The notes below the pieces were generated by a model, which made no database searches, was not told where the DNA came from, and saw only the letters and a list, made by a program, of their open reading frames with translations. A program made the position numbers and the translations under genes. Shown in pieces: positions 5,284-11,429 of a DNA stretch of 20,713 nt. This DNA is from a virus (Duplodnaviria > Heunggongvirae > Uroviricota > Caudoviricetes). The first letter of the stretch is position 1, and each line of letters starts with the position of its first letter. The stretch spans positions 1 through 20,713 of IMG/VR virus record IMGVR_UViG_2703718869_000003. One strand, 5' to 3'.

Positions 5284-5565
5284 CTATTCCTTCCGTATCG
5301 CTACTGGCGAAAGCATCCAGCCACGGCTGGCTCTCGCGTACTTCTGGACATACACCCGTAACCGGGTGTTGGCGCTCCGTCTTGCCCTGTTGCCCTTCCT
5401 GAACGATACAGGCTCCTTGTCCCACTCTTCCTGGTACACTCTCGCGTACTCTGCTGCAATTTTTACCCGGGTGGTCGGGTCTAGCTGTAACAATTGCTCC
5501 TGTATCCAGTCCCGATCAGCATCACAGTACTGCTCGGGCATAACCATTTTGATTTGCCTGTTCAC
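5284..5565 (-). CDS. Hypothetical protein in the cII position, basic C-terminus
   Basis: 93-aa ORF with a GTG start preceded by GGAGG at 5-nt spacing, 30 bp downstream of the cro stop. No sequence similarity to lambda CII that I can recognise. Confidence 0.6.
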   Translation of the reverse strand: MNRQIKMVMPEQYCDADRDWIQEQLLQLDPTTRVKIAAEYARVYQEEWDKEPVSFRKGNRARRSANTRLRVYVQKYARASRGWMLSPVAIRKE

Positions 5566-5595
5566 TCACACCTCCGATGGGCTGTGTGTCCAGGA

Positions 5596-5798
5596 TTAAT
5601 CATCGCCTCTTACGAACGCAGGGAACGGTCGAACCTCTTCCGCCTCAACTCTGCCGTCATCAAAGGTTTTGACGTAAATTTCACGTCCGACAAGAAGCGC
5701 TTTACTGATCGCGCTCTGCGCCACACCAAAGTCCTTAGCGGCTTTCTTCTGACCGAACCTGTATACGTAATCAGCCAGGGTCTCTTTTTTCATCGCCA
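5596..5798 (-). CDS. cro: Cro repressor
   Basis: From the Met at 5798, [60 protein letters not shown] parallels lambda Cro (…[35 protein letters not shown]…AEEVKPFP). GAAGGAG ribosome-binding site 7 nt upstream. Divergent from cI. Confidence 0.9.
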
Positions 5799-5821
5799 TA
5801 ACTGACTCCTTCAAAATGCCC

Positions 5822-5894
5822 ATATCATTACGCACAGTTATTAAAATGTCAACACCGCAGATATTTCATTACATATAACCAAAGGTGATATGGT
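5822..5894. promoter_or_regulatory. oR-like operator/promoter region: three candidate operators, leftward pR for cro (-35 TTGACA on the minus strand at 5847-5852), rightward pRM for cI
   Basis: 75-bp divergent intergenic region. Sites at about 5822-5838 (ATATCATTACGCACAGT), 5848-5864 (TCAACACCGCAGATATT) and 5874-5890 (ATAACCAAAGGTGATAT) carry lambda-like half-sites (CACCGC / GGTGATA) at roughly 26-bp spacing. The cI ATG lies at the edge, consistent with a leaderless transcript. Confidence 0.55.
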
Positions 5895-6608
5895 ATGAAC
5901 ATGAAAAAGAAACCGTTAACCCCTGAGCAACTGGAAGACGCCAAGCGTCTGAAAAGTATTTTTAACGCTAAAAAGAAAGAGTTAGGCCTGTCGCAGGAAT
6001 CATTAGCCTATGAATTAGGTGTTACCCAAAGCGCTGTTAATCAGCTAATGGCTGGCATCAACGCCATAAATGCCAGCCACGCAGCACAGCTTGCTAAGAT
6101 ACTGAATGTAAAGGTCGGAGATTTCAGTCCCAGCCTGGCAAAATCTATTGCAGAAATGGCGCTCGCAATTGAAGAGCCATTAACTCGTGTCCCCGCTTAC
6201 GAATATCCGTTACTCTCCTGCGTACAAGCTGGCGCATTCTCAATGGATGATATTTCGTACACCGCAAAAGATGCGATTAAATGGATCTCCACCACCACAA
6301 AAGCCAGTGACAGGTCGTTCTGGCTGGAGGTCAAGGGGCATTCAATGACCGCACCGCAGGGTGGTAAACCCAGCTTCCCTGAAGGTATGCTGATACTCGT
6401 TGACCCTGAACGGGAAATCGAGGATGGCGATTTTTGCGTGGCCCGAATGAACGGCGATGAATTTACCTTCAAACGATTCATTCGTGAGAGCGGTAAAGCG
6501 TACCTGGAGCCGCTCAACCCACGATTCGACATGATTGAGTGTAACGAAAACTGCCAGTTTGTCGGAAAGGTCATCAAATCGCAGTGGAATGATGAGACTT
6601 TTGATTGA
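5895..6608 (+). CDS. cI: CI repressor (lambda cI-like; HTH N-domain plus S24 LexA-like autopeptidase C-domain)
   Basis: Starts [38 protein letters not shown]. Ala-Gly cleavage context VQAGAFS. C-domain [32 protein letters not shown]...[11 protein letters not shown] is close to lambda cI. Confidence 0.95.
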
Positions 6609-6621
6609 GCTCACAGAGTGA

Positions 6622-6662
6622 TTTGACATCCTTCACGCCTGCAGAATGTGGAGGATGTCAAA
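6622..6662. promoter_or_regulatory. 10-bp perfect inverted repeat (TTTGACATCC ... GGATGTCAAA) flanking a 21-nt spacer that contains CTGCAG (6639-6644); embedded TTGACA hexamers
   Basis: Seen directly in the cI-methyltransferase intergenic region, 40-80 bp upstream of the methyltransferase ATG. A second imperfect hairpin lies at about 6664-6688. Confidence 0.5.
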
Positions 6663-6702
6663 AGCACGTTGGCATCATCATGCCACGTAAAGAGGATTAG
6701 TT

Positions 6703-8172
6703 ATGCTTCAAAAGCTAGACGTCGCAGACAGCGTGCGTCGCGAGCTGTCTCCCCGTACCGCGCGTAAACACAAAGCTGAGTTCGGCCAGTTCATGACGCC
6801 TTCTGGCGTGGCCCGTTTTATGGCCTCCTTGTTTCCACCGAGCACAATGAAAACTTGCCGTCTACTGGACGCAGGCGCTGGTGTAGGCGCACTGTCTTGC
6901 GCCTTCCTCGACCGTTGGCTGGTTGGCGAGTTTGGCTTTGAGTCTGTCGAGGCAACAGCCTACGAAATAGACAAAAAGCTGTGTGGTCACCTTGCGAAGC
7001 ACTTAACCGGGTACAGGAGAGTGACGCCCCGCATCATCGAAGGGGATTATATTGAGCTGGCAACCGCCGAAGGTCTACAGGATCGAGGTTATACCCATGC
7101 AATACTTAATCCGCCTTACAAGAAGATCAATAGCCAGTCAGCCCACCGGCAGGCTCTTCGCACTGTCGGTATCGAGACGGTAAATCTGTATTCCGCCTTT
7201 GTTGCACTGGCTGTAGGTGAGGTTGCACCTGGCGGGCAGATAGTGGCCATAATCCCACGTAGTTTCTGCAACGGACCGTATTACCGTCCGTTCCGTAATT
7301 TCATACTTGAGCGGGCAGCAATCCGCCATATTCATTTGTTCGAATCACGTAGCAAAGCTTTCAGGGATGACGATGTGTTGCAGGAAAATATTATCATCCG
7401 CCTGGAGCGTGGAGGCCTTCAGGAGGCTGTTACAGTCACAACTTCGACCGATGATAGCTTTTTTGACCTGGTCACCTACGAACACCCATTTGACCAAATT
7501 GTGTACCCGGACGATTCGGAGCGGTTTATTCATGTGCCGACCACGCACGAGAAAAGCGCCATTGAGTTATCATCCGCCGTACAATGTTCGCTGGCTGATA
7601 TTGGCGTGAAGGTATCGACCGGACCGATAGTTGATTTCCGACTGAAAGCTCATTTGCGCAGCATGCCCGAAGAAGGAACTGTTCCCCTGATCTACCCGAG
7701 CCATTTGAGTATGAGTAGCACTGTCTGGCCTGTGGAAGGTTTGAAGAAACCCAACGCAATCATGCGCAACGACGAGACAGAAAAGTGGCTTTACCCGAAC
7801 GGTTTTTATTGTGTGGTGCGTCGTTTCTCGTCGAAGGAGGAAAAGCGCCGAGTGGTAGCAAGCGTCGTTGATCCTGCTACCTTCAGTGAGTATTCAGTGT
7901 TGGGATTTGAAAATCACATGAACGTGTTTCATGAGAACAAACATGGGTTACCCGAGGCGCTGGCCCGTGGCTTGGCCGTGTTCCTGAACACTACCGCAGT
8001 GGATAAGTATTTCCGTCGATTCAACGGGCATACACAGGTCAATGCAACCGACCTCAAGATGATTAAGTACCCAAGCCGTGACACTCTGATAGAGCTTGGC
8101 AAGTGGGCTATGCAACAAGAAACTCTCACGCAAGAACATATTGACGCTAAGCTAGGAGCTCTGACTGCATGA
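6703..8172 (+). CDS. N6-adenine DNA methyltransferase (NPPY class); putative M subunit of a PstI/BsuBI-like type II restriction-modification system
   Basis: FxTP motif (FGQFMTPSGVARFM), AdoMet-binding LLDAGAGVGAL, catalytic NPPY (HAILNPPYKK). 489 aa, about the size I recall for M.PstI/M.BsuBI. AAGAGG ribosome-binding site. Confidence 0.85.
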   Translation: MLQKLDVADSVRRELSPRTARKHKAEFGQFMTPSGVARFMASLFPPSTMKTCRLLDAGAGVGALSCAFLDRWLVGEFGFESVEATAYEIDKKLCGHLAKHLTGYRRVTPRIIEGDYIELATAEGLQDRGYTHAILNPPYKKINSQSAHRQALRTVGIETVNLYSAFVALAVGEVAPGGQIVAIIPRSFCNGPYYRPFRNFILERAAIRHIHLFESRSKAFRDDDVLQENIIIRLERGGLQEAVTVTTSTDDSFFDLVTYEHPFDQIVYPDDSERFIHVPTTHEKSAIELSSAVQCSLADIGVKVSTGPIVDFRLKAHLRSMPEEGTVPLIYPSHLSMSSTVWPVEGLKKPNAIMRNDETEKWLYPNGFYCVVRRFSSKEEKRRVVASVVDPATFSEYSVLGFENHMNVFHENKHGLPEALARGLAVFLNTTAVDKYFRRFNGHTQVNATDLKMIKYPSRDTLIELGKWAMQQETLTQEHIDAKLGALTA

Positions 8173-9122
8173 ACAACCAAAATGATTATATTGAGGCCGC
8201 TCAGCAAATTATAGCATCCTTAGGCCTGCCCAGAGCGCAGCAGAATGAGCGTTCTGCTTTGTGTTTGCTGGCACTCCTGAACCTCACACCGGGAAAAGCA
8301 TGGGCCAACGCGGAAAATCCGCTTGTGGGCATTACACCAATCATGAATTGGGTTCGGGAGCACTACGGCAAGGTCTACGCACCCAATACTCGTGAGACAT
8401 TCCGCCGCCAGTCTATGCATCAGTTCTGCGCTGCTGGAGTAGCCCTCTACAATCCGGACAAGCCCGATCGCCCAGTGAACAGCCCGAAGGCTGTTTATCA
8501 GATCGAACCTGCTGCTCTGTCCATGCTACGCACTTTCGGCAGCCCGGCATGGCACGATAGCCTTGCAACCTATTTAGCCGAGCGTGAAACGCTGGTTACC
8601 CGCTATGCTAAGGAGCGCGAACAGAATCGTATCCCTGTTGAAATTGCTGCGGGCCAGCAAATAACCCTCAGTCCCGGCGAGCACAGCGAACTTATCCGTG
8701 CCATAATAGAGGACTTCGCCCCACGTTTTGCTCCGGGTAGCGTGCTGGTCTATGCTGGCGACACTGGCGAAAAGTGGGGCTACTTCGACGCTCCACTGCT
8801 GGCCGGGCTAGGTGTTGATGTGGATTCACACGGTAAAATGCCAGATGTGGTGCTACATTTTACTGCGAAAAACTGGCTGCTACTGGTTGAGTCTGTCACC
8901 AGTCATGGACCGGTTGATGGGAAGCGGCATGCTGAGCTTGCCAGGCTGTTTGCCGGATCAACAGCCGGACTTGTCTATGTGACCGCTTTTCCAAATCGCT
9001 CCATCATGGGACGATATCTTGGTGAAATCGCATGGGAAACAGAGGTATGGGTGGCTGATGCACCTTCTCATCTTATTCACTTCAACGGAGTACGATTTCT
9101 TGGCCCCTACTCTACTGAATGA
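8169..9122 (+). CDS. Putative type II restriction endonuclease, BsuBI/PstI family (assignment by size, synteny and motif; not verified)
   Basis: 317 aa. Start overlaps the methyltransferase stop (ATGA). Contains a PD...E-like segment (GKMPDVVLHF...NWLLLVESVTSHG). Followed by an intrinsic terminator. Confidence 0.55.
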   Translation: MNNQNDYIEAAQQIIASLGLPRAQQNERSALCLLALLNLTPGKAWANAENPLVGITPIMNWVREHYGKVYAPNTRETFRRQSMHQFCAAGVALYNPDKPDRPVNSPKAVYQIEPAALSMLRTFGSPAWHDSLATYLAERETLVTRYAKEREQNRIPVEIAAGQQITLSPGEHSELIRAIIEDFAPRFAPGSVLVYAGDTGEKWGYFDAPLLAGLGVDVDSHGKMPDVVLHFTAKNWLLLVESVTSHGPVDGKRHAELARLFAGSTAGLVYVTAFPNRSIMGRYLGEIAWETEVWVADAPSHLIHFNGVRFLGPYSTE

Positions 9123-9142
9123 GTACAGGACCAGATAAATAG

Positions 9143-9169
9143 CCCGGCCCATGCGCCGGGTTTTTCTTT
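9143..9169 (+). terminator. Rho-independent terminator ending the cI/methyltransferase/endonuclease transcription unit
   Basis: Stem CCCGGC (9143-9148) / GCCGGG (9155-9160), 6-nt loop, then TTTTTCTTT. Confidence 0.65.
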
Positions 9170-9249
9170 GCATATCCCCTCCTGCTATCTGTCCCCTTCA
9201 AAAATAAATCACTTTAAAAATCAGTTAAGTAATATTTTCTTGCCCACAA

Positions 9250-9293
9250 TAACCACCAACGGTATTTACACAAAAATCACCGCAAGTTATATT
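9250..9293 (+). promoter_or_regulatory. pL-like promoter with overlapping oL-like operators
   Basis: -35 TTTACA (9265-9270), 17-bp spacer, -10 TATATT (9288-9293). The spacer contains AATCACCGCAAGTTAT, a lambda-operator-like half-site; an upstream ATAACCACCAACGGTAT is a second candidate. Confidence 0.5.
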
Positions 9294-9372
9294 TATTTCA
9301 AGCCAGAAACATCGCGCCCTTACACAGGGCTACATAAATCAGTCGTACGGCGCGACTTAACCCGCCGCAAAA

Positions 9373-9385
9373 TGCTCTTTAACAA
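9373..9385 (+). promoter_or_regulatory. boxA-like element (TGCTCTTTAACAA), identical to the E. coli rrn boxA core as I recall it
   Basis: Exact string about 80 nt downstream of the putative pL start; possible nutL-type or rrn-type antitermination site. Confidence 0.4.
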
Positions 9386-9689
9386 TCTGGAGCTTTACAG
9401 CGTCAATGACCTGTTTAGACCCCTACACGTAAACGTGCTGTATCATCGGGTGCGATCCGGTCGATGAGAGAGTATCCCCGCGCGAGAGCGAGAACGGCGT
9501 GAGAACGGGCAACACTGGCAGGAAGTTGGCGCTGACCAATACAGGGAAGGTTTTGGGGTGCAGGCAGCACCGCCAAAGCATTTCCGAGAAAGGATGGTAT
9601 TGACTGCGTGTGATGTCGGGGCTATATTTGGCGAACACCTCATAAAACGGGTGTCGGGATTAGGACCCCGCTGACAATCGAGGCGATAC

Positions 9690-9711
9690 AGACGCGCTAG
9701 CGTCTTTTTTT
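9690..9711 (+). terminator. Rho-independent terminator (tL-like) in the pL leader
   Basis: Stem AGACGC / GCGTCT with GCTA loop, followed by a run of 7 T. Confidence 0.7.
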
Positions 9712-9876
9712 GTATCGACATGCACGCACATCTTATCAATGGTGGGCTGTATGGGGCCGACTTCGGTCGGGCTGGTTCCCTTGATTGCCAGTAGTCCTAA
9801 CCCTGTACAGTCCACCGCCAGCGAGTTTAGGACCTCCGGCGGTGGTTATCAATCACCAATCAAGGAGGCTGCCACC

Positions 9877-10521
9877 ATGGCTACTATATCTCCCCTTTCT
9901 CGCCCATCCGTAACTATTGAAAACGGCAATGCCATCACTACGTCAATTGACATCGCAGAGTTCTTTGAGAAGCAGCATCACCATGTTGTTCAGAAAATAG
10001 AATCCCTTGAATGCTCTGAACAATTCTTAACCAGCAACTTTTCGCGGGTTAAATTCGAACACCGGGGTAATACCTATAACGCCTATCAAATCACCAAAAA
10101 CGGCTTCGTCTTCCTGGTGATGGGCTTCACTGGTAAAAAAGCCGCCGCTTTCAAAGAAGCCTACATCGCTGAATTCGATCGCATGGAAAAACAGCTATGG
10201 GAACAGAAACAACTGGCCCTGTCTTCTCCTGCGATGAATATCAATTTCCCTTTGTCGTGGTTTTCTGAGCATCACCCCTACGCCACGATGAATTATGTTG
10301 ATCGAAAAACATTGCAGCTTGATACCTCCGTCTTATTCGACATGCCAAGCCCTGCAATGCGCATATTTAATGAATTACGTCGCAACGGCTATAACGTTGA
10401 CGCCGCTGTCGCTGAATTTAACGCCTTCAAACATCTGACGGAAGAAATGCGCCGTACACTACAGGATATTTCAAGATTGTCAGATCAAAATGCCCGAAAA
10501 GGCTTCTCTGTAAGCCTCTAA
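9877..10521 (+). CDS. Rha-family phage regulatory protein / antirepressor-like, with a C-terminal domain shared with the next gene
   Basis: Start chosen at the ATG at 9877 (AAGGAGG 8 nt upstream) rather than the ORF-track start at 9739. N-terminal region ITTSIDIAEFFEKQHHHVVQKIE...YQITKNGFVFLVMGF resembles the Rha family from memory. Confidence 0.75.
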   Translation: MATISPLSRPSVTIENGNAITTSIDIAEFFEKQHHHVVQKIESLECSEQFLTSNFSRVKFEHRGNTYNAYQITKNGFVFLVMGFTGKKAAAFKEAYIAEFDRMEKQLWEQKQLALSSPAMNINFPLSWFSEHHPYATMNYVDRKTLQLDTSVLFDMPSPAMRIFNELRRNGYNVDAAVAEFNAFKHLTEEMRRTLQDISRLSDQNARKGFSVSL

Positions 10522-10637: not shown

Positions 10638-10790
10638 TGCCTGTTCACAGGTATCGCCATATCAATGGCGGGTCGAGAGAGCCTAATACAACACCCTTTC
10701 GGGAAATACGCTCCGCCGTCTGACGCGGTAGTTGAAGCCCGCCACCCCACTAAGGTGGCAGTCAATACTAAAACGTCAGGAGTCATGATT

Positions 10791-11429
10791 ATGGCTAATC
10801 AACTCATCCCCGTATTCAACGGCACCATATCCAACGAAACAACTCTTTTAGTTAACGCTCGTGATCTACATTCTTTTCTTGGTGTGGGCAGAATGTTCGC
10901 GCACTGGGTTAAAGAGCGCATTGCTGAATATGGATTCGTTGAAAGCCAGGACTATATTTTGATTTGCCAAAATGGGCAAACCAAAGGTCGAGGAGGTAAT
11001 CGCCGTAGCAAGGACTACCACCTAACTCTCGACACAGCCAAAGAGCTGGCAATGGTTGAGCGCAACGAAAAAGGCCGCCAGATACGCCGCTACTTCATTG
11101 AGTGCGAGAAAAAGTTTCGCCAGAGTCTTTTACCTACACCAATGAACATCAACTACCCTCTCTCGTGGTTCTCAGATAACCATCCCTACGCCACGATGAA
11201 CTATGTTGATCGCAAGGTTATCAGCCTTGATGCTTCCGTGCTCTTCGATATGCCAAGCCCAACTATGCGCATCCTCAACGAGCTACACAGCAAGGGCTAT
11301 AACGTCGATGCAGCTGTCGCCGAATTTAACGCCTTCAAGCATCTGACGGAAGAAATGCGCCGTAAATTGCTGGATATTTCCCGCACATCGGAAAAGTCTT
11401 CCCGCTTTGGTTTCAACGTAAATCTTTAA
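10791..11429 (+). CDS. AntA/AntB-type antirepressor-like protein, with the same C-terminal domain as the Rha-like gene
   Basis: Start at 10791 (AGGAG 8 nt upstream). N-terminal LIPVFNGTISNETTLLVNARDLHSFLGV...QDYILICQNGQTKGRGGNRRSKDYHLTLDTAKELAMVERNEKGRQIRRYFIECEK resembles AntA-type antirepressors from memory. The C-terminal 95 aa is a paralogue of the Rha-like C-terminus. Confidence 0.75.
   Translation: MANQLIPVFNGTISNETTLLVNARDLHSFLGVGRMFAHWVKERIAEYGFVESQDYILICQNGQTKGRGGNRRSKDYHLTLDTAKELAMVERNEKGRQIRRYFIECEKKFRQSLLPTPMNINYPLSWFSDNHPYATMNYVDRKVISLDASVLFDMPSPTMRILNELHSKGYNVDAAVAEFNAFKHLTEEMRRKLLDISRTSEKSSRFGFNVNL

Follow-up and report, generated by a model that had tools for sequence, protein, structure and literature searches.

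A palindrome between the cI gene and the RM.EcoGIII genes of an Stx2a-converting phage is probably a relic of an IS609-type right end

Results

Genes of the immunity region and the RM.EcoGIII system

The stretch of DNA analysed here (20,713 nt, hereafter the window) represents the immunity and early region of a Stx2a-converting lambdoid phage of the O104:H4 / phi191 / TL-2011c type, and its positions 5500-9600 share 99% identity with about 100 deposited phage genomes. Gene calling placed cro on the minus strand (5835-5596) and a cI-type repressor gene on the plus strand (5895-6608). The cI product carries HTH_3 and Peptidase_S24 domains, and the stop codon of the gene is located 13 nt 5' of the palindrome under study (6622-6662). 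On the same strand follow a gene for an M.EcoGIII-type N6-adenine methyltransferase of 489 amino acids with an Eco57I-type methylase domain (6703-8172; M), assigned by domain search and from the literature, and a gene for an R.EcoGIII-type endonuclease of the BsuBI/PstI family, 317 amino acids in size (8169-9122; R), whose start overlaps the stop of M by 4 nt (ATGA). Folding of the M leader revealed a small plus-strand hairpin (6666-6688; ACGU-UGGCAU-CAUC-AUGCCA-CGU, -9.8 kcal/mol) directly 5' of the Shine-Dalgarno sequence GAGG at 6692-6695; this hairpin is present solely where the M gene is present. The cI-M-R unit is closed by an intrinsic terminator-like hairpin with a T-run (9141-9162, plus strand) that was detected by scanning.

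The nuclease matched both Pfam BsuBI_PstI_RE domains, the N-terminal and the catalytic one (E-values of 4.6e-61 and 1.7e-54), and together with the adjacent N6-adenine methyltransferase it forms a type II restriction-modification (R-M) system of the PstI/BsuBI family. Two papers that cite the original work on O104:H4 C227-11 report that M.EcoGIII methylates CTGCAG and that R.EcoGIII is active (PMC3893438, PMC6602927). In lysogens, 98.8-100% of the CTGCAG sites are methylated, the value for O145 RM13514 being 98.8% (PMC3893438, PMC6602927). A PstI/BsuBI-type system with CTGCAG specificity had been proposed in an earlier sequence-only reading of this DNA, and both the Pfam matches and the RM.EcoGIII literature agree with that proposal. 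As for control by a C protein, there is no ORF between the end of cI (6608) and the start of M (6703), M and R overlap at ATGA, and no controller gene with a C-box was found. Among the phage records with the M gene we looked for an R-M cassette lacking the palindrome and found none; the palindrome was present in 97 of 97.

Further downstream on the plus strand, two RNA families scored above the Rfam gathering score: the Hfq-binding sRNA isrK (64.2 bits; 9635-9710) and, truncated by the end of the search range, the C4 antisense RNA (47.3 bits; 9735-9800). They lie just upstream of, and overlap, a Rha/Ash-family ORF (9739-10521) and an AntA antirepressor gene (10665-11429), and the region resembles an ImmI-like antisense control module of the P1/P7 kind, here for an antirepressor of the Stx phage.

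Structure of the palindrome

The sequence-only reading had described a perfect 10-bp palindrome with CTGCAG in its loop and a TTGACA hexamer in each arm. All of these sequences and positions proved exact, with the arms TTTGACATCC at 6622-6631 and GGATGTCAAA at 6653-6662, CTGCAG between them at 6639-6644, and a second CTGCAG at 2789-2794 in the primase gene. The repeat is, in fact, longer than was described, as the arms can be extended to 15 nt (6622-6636 and 6648-6662) with one T:G position. As RNA, the palindrome folds into 16 contiguous pairs with a 9-nt loop (-22.0 kcal/mol; z = -5.96 relative to shuffled sequences), so the suggestion that it could form an RNA hairpin was well founded. Both imperfections of the stem are G:U on the cI sense strand and C:A on the opposite strand (-22.0 versus -17.8 kcal/mol).

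Perfect 10-bp inverted repeats with loops of 3-30 nt occur five times in the window, representing four distinct elements, against 0.59 ± 0.98 in dinucleotide shuffles, an excess of about eight-fold. Because of this excess, the palindrome is not a chance product. A similar perfect 10-bp inverted repeat was seen within the cI coding region at 6049-6079 (TGGCTGGCAT / ATGCCAGCCA, with an 11-nt spacer).

Identity with the right end of IS609

On an IncI2 plasmid (L076), a TnpB gene (NCBIfam guided_TnpB, 389 bits) is followed, 13 nt after its stop codon, by a copy in which the element ends, on the tnpB sense strand, with ...GGAAT-CCACGTCC-TTTA-GGGCGTGG-AGGATGTCAA. This insertion sequence is IS609 (insQ), of which copies were found in 5049 of 5426 E. 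coli genomes (93%) at many loci, the homology always starting at the terminus. IS609 has been reported to be cleaved at TTAT on the left and TCAA on the right (PMC6906374). In IS608, TnpA binds the subterminal hairpins; TCAA is located 10 nt 3' of the foot of the right hairpin and a 4-nt guide 5' of the foot, and TnpA requires pairing of this guide with the cleavage site (PMC3201880).

The palindrome matches about 31 nt at the extremity of the IS609 right end, comprising the subterminal hairpin and the 10-nt tail ending in TCAA. In the window, the right tail AGGATGTCAA (6652-6661, plus strand), with TCAA at 6658-6661, is identical to the IS609 right-end terminus and cleavage site as defined by the IS609 copies at many loci and by the literature (PMC6906374, PMC3201880). 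The hairpin core TCAC-GCCTGCAGAAT-GTGG (6633-6651, plus strand) aligns with the subterminal hairpin CCACGTCC-TTTA-GGGCGTGG; it retains the imperfect palindrome of the family, the shared core CCACG...CGTGG having degenerated to TCACG...TGTGG, and its loop is flipped relative to IS609 and to the prophage PhiR12_3. The left 10 nt, TTGACATCCT (6623-6632, plus strand), are the reverse complement of the right-end tail and stand where intact IS609, as in the IncI2 plasmid copy, has its guide side (...GGAAT). The same architecture was found in the other solo copies: between the hairpin foot and TCAA they equal the right end of IS609, with PhiR12_3 differing at 2 of 31 positions, and they carry the mirror-image tail TTGACATCCT on the side where the intact IS has its guide. 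The two TTGACA hexamers consequently represent the IS609 terminus ...GGATGTCAA (TGTCAA), once as its complement and once as its copy, and there are two of them because the IS tail is mirrored on both sides of the hairpin.

Other parts of an IS are missing at this locus. The four nucleotides 5' of the foot are TCCT (6629-6632) instead of the IS609 guide GAAT, neither a linked tnpB or tnpA nor a same-strand left end was found, the neighbours being cI and M, and a search of the window for further copies of the arm with at most three mismatches gave none that was convincing. A metagenome-assembled genome (MAG) of Oxalobacter also has a tnpB end of the same architecture, with a loop that matches the solo copies of that genome. 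Judged from these alignments, the palindrome is a derivative of an IS200/IS605 end, a known kind of element; for the symmetrical solo form we could not find a published description.

Occurrence in other genomes and at module junctions

In the window, the symmetrised palindrome (6622-6662) occupies the junction between the cI module and variable cargo, as delimited by homology breakpoints at 6621/6622 and 6662. In PhiR12_3 and its relatives, cI and the stem are kept, the loop is GTCCTTTGGGGC, and the homology with the window ends exactly at 6662; past the foot, a 160-bp segment derived from the 3' end of a Rha gene precedes what is left of R. These prophages have thus lost M and the 5' part of R (L001 3105-3264, L073 3501-3660), and the 160-bp replacement matches the 3' end and downstream part of a Rha-family gene from a P4-like satellite integrated at tRNA-Pro, fused directly to the palindrome foot. 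The other breakpoint is provided by a prophage of E. coli 2018-166 (L003), which has the same cI, no palindrome and different cargo. Its homology with the window breaks at 6621/6622, the next bases past the left foot are TAAT on the relevant strand, compared with the published TTAT target, and on the right side there is the different cargo. This cargo (L003 2622-4825) encodes a small membrane protein, a serine protease of the SDH family with a Clp fold, and a HicAB toxin-antitoxin pair. The slot downstream of cI is a general cargo position. A more distant cI, 70% identical, is found in E. coli A34, where a perfect stem with the loop GCCATAAATGAC and a compensatory change from C-G to A-T is accompanied by convergent relE/parE and no R-M genes.

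Pattern scans recovered the same arms in the Oxalobacter MAG, in Lyngbya and Fusicatenibacter, and at several metagenomic and viral loci, in all cases with unrelated flanks. The Oxalobacter MAG, whose genome also carries the IS, contains at least five solo copies with matching loops between housekeeping genes. No transposase was seen beside the solo copies, their neighbours being housekeeping genes. An adaptor or assembly artefact was considered for the cross-phylum copies and rejected, since these copies are found within contigs, with intact genes on both sides. Solo palindromes were also found on P1-like plasmids and on about 900 mostly Klebsiella plasmids.

At two loci the origin of the solo copy could be judged. 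On a P1-like plasmid (L074) the sequence reads ...TCAA|GCAACATGACC where relatives have TTAT|GCAACATAACC, the canonical IS609 target. Upstream of fecI in K-12 (L081 2498-2533) there is a right-end remnant of the native type, GAAAT-CCCCATCC-TTTA-GGGCAGTG-AGGATGTCAA|TAATAGCAGACC, truncated by IS1F, and the one plasmid read out of the about 900 of the Klebsiella type (L075 4001-4040) has the symmetrical palindrome at the same junction. As read from these two loci, solo copies arise in place from IS insertions and not as arriving units. The K-12 remnant overlaps the annotated small gene ykiE. In the Stx phages, the P1-like plasmids and the fec loci, the palindrome usually sits where homology between relatives breaks.

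The inner segment varies among relatives, with lengths of 10, 11, 12, 13, 14 and 26 nt. Positions outside the searched core co-vary among the solo copies, which indicates that the geometry of the hairpin, but not the loop, is maintained. In Fusicatenibacter, one copy (L044 6319-6356) has its inner segment inverted within identical flanks (cacctgtagaggtg versus cacctctacaggtg in L041 and L042), showing that the spacer between the arms can flip. The loops of the R-M phages and of PhiR12_3 are likewise in opposite orientation.

Distribution and origin of the CTGCAG site

The CTGCAG in the loop (6639-6644) is the recognition site of RM.EcoGIII, and of about 134 E. coli prophages with the module, 9 carry it. 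Allele-specific searches of 5,426 complete E. coli genomes typed the loop in 123 genomes with the cI-palindrome-M-R module: GCCTGCAGAAT, with CTGCAG, in nine, and GCCTGAAGAAT, with CTGAAG and no site, in 114. The loop of O104:H4 2011C-3493 has CTGAAG, and the O145 phage Lyz12581Vzw (strain RM12581), with full-length M and R, has the loop GCCCTGAAGAAT, in which CCCTGAAG replaces CTGCAG. The IMG/VR contigs with the same flanks as the window (n = 15) comprised 13 with CTGAAG and one each with CCCTGAAG and CTGCAG. Among deposited phage genomes, the site was absent from 98 of 98 checked; none was identical to the window over 6560-6720, the best reaching 99.4%. The cognate site is therefore not conserved among homologous systems, contrary to the expectation for a methylation-sensitive R-M promoter.

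The genomes with the CTGCAG allele differ from the window by only 2-3 substitutions over 5.9 kb, whereas O104 differs at several linked sites, and for this reason the C at 6642, judged from sequence comparison, is one derived change of single origin that marks one small sublineage. The solo copies commonly have the loop GTCCTT(C/T)AGGGC, of which the R-M phages carry the flipped version. The loops can be arranged as a series from GCCCTGAAGGAC through GCCCTGAAGAAT (O145) and GCCTGAAGAAT (O104 and the majority) to GCCTGCAGAAT (the window), with a corresponding series of core hexamers, CTAAAG in IS609, CTGAAG in most phages and CTGCAG in the sublineage of the window. Given the loop skeleton CCT-NN-AG, NN = GC alone suffices for CTGCAG, and the A-to-C change at 6642 leaves the hairpin energy at -22.0 kcal/mol for both alleles.

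RM.EcoGIII works in phages without the loop site. For O104:H4, the allele was read in 2011C-3493 (CTGAAG), and the enzymes are those described from C227-11 (PMC3893438); for O145, the methylation data come from RM13514 and the allele (CCCTGAAG) was read in the RM12581 phage.

The sequence-only reading had proposed counting CTGCAG as a check for site avoidance. The window contains two sites where 5-10 are expected, and the related 61.6-kb phage P13771 contains 10 where about 15-24 are expected, an about two-fold depletion that ranks 15th among the 64 six-base palindromes. Specific avoidance of CTGCAG was rejected, since in both the window and P13771 many other six-base palindromes are similarly or more depleted; the depletion is ordinary. 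P13771 (L079, L080), which matches window positions 1-20713 and beyond, lacks CTGCAG in its first 21 kb, from the integrase through the immunity and R-M genes; the tail-fibre region at 40-45 kb holds a cluster of 6 of its 10 sites. Apart from the copy in the primase gene, the loop site is the sole CTGCAG of this otherwise site-free stretch in the window.

Promoter, terminator, RNA family and coding signals

No sigma-70-like promoter was found by scanning 6600-6702. At 16-18 nt from TTGACA, direct reading gave AATGTG, ATGTGG and TGTGGA on the plus strand and GCGTGA on the minus strand, none usable as a -10 box, and the CTGCAG site overlaps no -35 or -10 box of a functional M or R promoter. With neither a -10 box nor a scan match, the promoter reading was rejected. 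The sequences that follow the stem (AAAAGCACG and ATCACTCTG on the plus and minus strand, respectively) are not U-tracts and the scan called no terminator, so an intrinsic terminator was rejected as well. Rfam searches over 6603-6680 returned only sub-threshold chance matches, such as MIR394 with 23 bits against a gathering score of 60. A likeness of the O145 loop to the lambda nutL boxB (GCCCTGAAGAA) was considered a coincidence, as the complementary 3' half is missing.

The palindrome can also be read in frame as DILH-xxxx-VEDV on both strands, and on a P1-like plasmid it lies within an ORF of 79 amino acids. A coding function was rejected because the flanking peptides are unrelated and stops occur within a few residues in most copies; in addition, inner segments of 10, 11, 13, 14 and 26 nt break the frame, and the overlapping ORFs searched against Pfam gave no match.

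Discussion

Most probably, and with good confidence, we interpret 6622-6662 as an IS609-type right-end relic at the junction of cI and its cargo, with no dedicated role in R-M control. The reading builds on the sequence identity with the IS609 end, the non-conservation of the site, the occurrence of the palindrome without R-M genes, and its position at a junction. The relic of an IS609-type element (IS200/IS605 family, TnpB-carrying) would have kept the right-end hairpin and the 10-nt TCAA tail, and a mirror-image copy of the tail would have been added on the opposite side of the hairpin, giving TTGACATCCT-hairpin-AGGATGTCAA. To produce this mirroring, two IS copies in opposite orientation may have recombined through their palindromic hairpins, an event that would also bring unrelated flanks together; alternatively, a quasi-palindrome may have been corrected by template switching. 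The relic would then lie at the meeting point of the cI immunity module and interchangeable cargo, here RM.EcoGIII, and the CTGCAG in the loop would go back to one late base substitution. Transcription of M and R most likely starts at the cI promoter and reads through, M probably being translated from its own leader, which contains the small hairpin and a Shine-Dalgarno sequence, and R presumably being coupled to M through the ATGA overlap. Beyond forming a stem-loop in this transcript, the relic would have no dedicated function. The IS origin is proposed from sequence identity and by analogy with other loci, as there is no transposase gene or left end near the palindrome.

The sequence-only reading had favoured regulation through the element. 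Its observation, the PstI/BsuBI system, the cognate site and the hairpin all stand, while regulation mediated by the site does not, and the stem also occurs without R-M. In its main form, a conserved CTGCAG in the loop would feed methylation by M.EcoGIII back on the expression of M and R. CTGCAG is indeed the true recognition site and is located 59 nt upstream of the M start codon, and methylation-sensitive promoters are known in other R-M systems, e.g., CfrBI. However, the site is missing in 114 of the 123 allele-typed E. coli genomes, in the O104:H4 and O145 phages with active R-M and in all deposited phage genomes checked; it has a single origin, no promoter overlaps it, and the palindrome exists without R-M, which makes such feedback extremely improbable. 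We conclude that there is no built-in R-M control switch at this position, because the restriction site is a one-base change limited to a small sublineage. The TTGACA hexamers had also been read as an internal promoter or operator, in which they would serve as -35 boxes for M and R or for divergent transcription and the dyad would serve as a repressor site. A perfect TTGACA is present on both strands, but a usable -10 hexamer 16-18 nt downstream is lacking on either strand, the scan found no promoter, the variable arm spacing among relatives is unsuited to a dimeric operator, and the hexamers are accounted for by the IS terminus TGTCAA; we regard this possibility as very unlikely.

A minor yet real possibility is that the relic has been co-opted as an RNA element, the 16-bp stem-loop acting in the cI-M-R transcript as a 3' stabiliser of cI, as an RNase III site, or as a partial barrier reducing M and R compared with cI. 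Effects on upstream genes are known for REP hairpins situated near stop codons. The palindrome folds strongly (-22 kcal/mol, z = -6), and the retention of the stem both in about 140 prophages and with a second lineage of cI, the compensatory change in A34, and the pattern of G:U on the cI sense strand and C:A on the other could mean such co-option. On the other hand, the L003 prophage has the same cI without the hairpin, identical palindromes occur in all kinds of intergenic context in other bacteria, including between divergent genes, there is no U-tract, the inner stem is decaying in the R-M phages, and the G:U pattern represents one or two mutational events. It is less likely, and on the whole doubtful, that the solo palindrome is an active recombination site, one that IS609 TnpA still recognises or that SbcCD cleaves as a hairpin, and that drives the exchange of cargo 3' of cI. 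In the Stx phages, the P1-like plasmids and the fec loci, the breakpoints of homology fall precisely on the two feet, the positions of TCAA cleavage on either strand, loop inversions are seen, and IS609 is present in 93% of E. coli genomes. Still, the 4 nt 5' of the foot are TCCT and not the GAAT guide that IS608 TnpA needs (PMC3201880), and breakpoints at the feet are also expected from junctions inherited from the original IS insertions.

[quoted passage not shown] The palindrome shares with it the core, the 10-nt tail, the terminal TCAA (14 of 14 nt in the 3' arm), the distance from foot to TCAA and, at other loci, the TTAT-type target junctions, but the phage element has no tnpA, tnpB or left end nearby, its GAAT guide side is replaced by the complement of the tail, and its inner stem is degenerate. 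PATEs and REP/REPIN sequences, non-autonomous palindromes tied to IS200/IS605 ends and mobilised by TnpA or RAYT, are similarly short, intergenic and multi-copy (at least five solo copies in the Oxalobacter MAG). They differ in that the solo element lacks a 5' motif of the GTAG type, no RAYT was seen in the 8-kb loci, the solo element is a single hairpin instead of a left and a right end, and an in-place origin is indicated at the two judged loci. With R-M systems regulated through their own site, such as the CfrBI promoter, the locus has in common a cognate site 5' of the methyltransferase gene, in this sublineage only; the phage site is not conserved, overlaps no promoter and lies inside an IS-derived hairpin loop. 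Lambda rexA-rexB and other cargo downstream of cI provide a parallel of a different kind, in which defence genes directly follow cI in the same orientation, end at a terminator and are presumably driven by the repressor promoter in lysogens; here, the cargo is instead a type II R-M system and the cI junction carries the IS609 relic.

The RM.EcoGIII system of outbreak-type Stx2a phages thus has no conserved self-site switch, and its known genome-wide effects should therefore not be modelled with methylation-sensitive autoregulation at this hairpin. For annotators and motif hunters, a perfect palindrome bearing TTGACA is easily mistaken for a promoter, an operator or a terminator. The 40-nt mirror-image derivative of the IS609 right end is widespread, occurring in Stx phages, P1-like plasmids, about 900 mostly Klebsiella plasmids and several phyla, repeatedly at module breakpoints. 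As a speculation to which we give a limited chance, the symmetrical solo palindrome (TTGACATCCT-hairpin-AGGATGTCAA) might be a recurrent, unrecognised by-product or derivative of IS609 that acts as a portable recombination joint, marking and perhaps creating the points at which phages and plasmids exchange cargo (R-M, toxin-antitoxin and lysis or iron-uptake modules), and that also multiplies in a REP-like manner, as in the Oxalobacter MAG. If true, this would tie IS200/IS605 ends to the shuffling of modules and to the origin of REP-like repeats.
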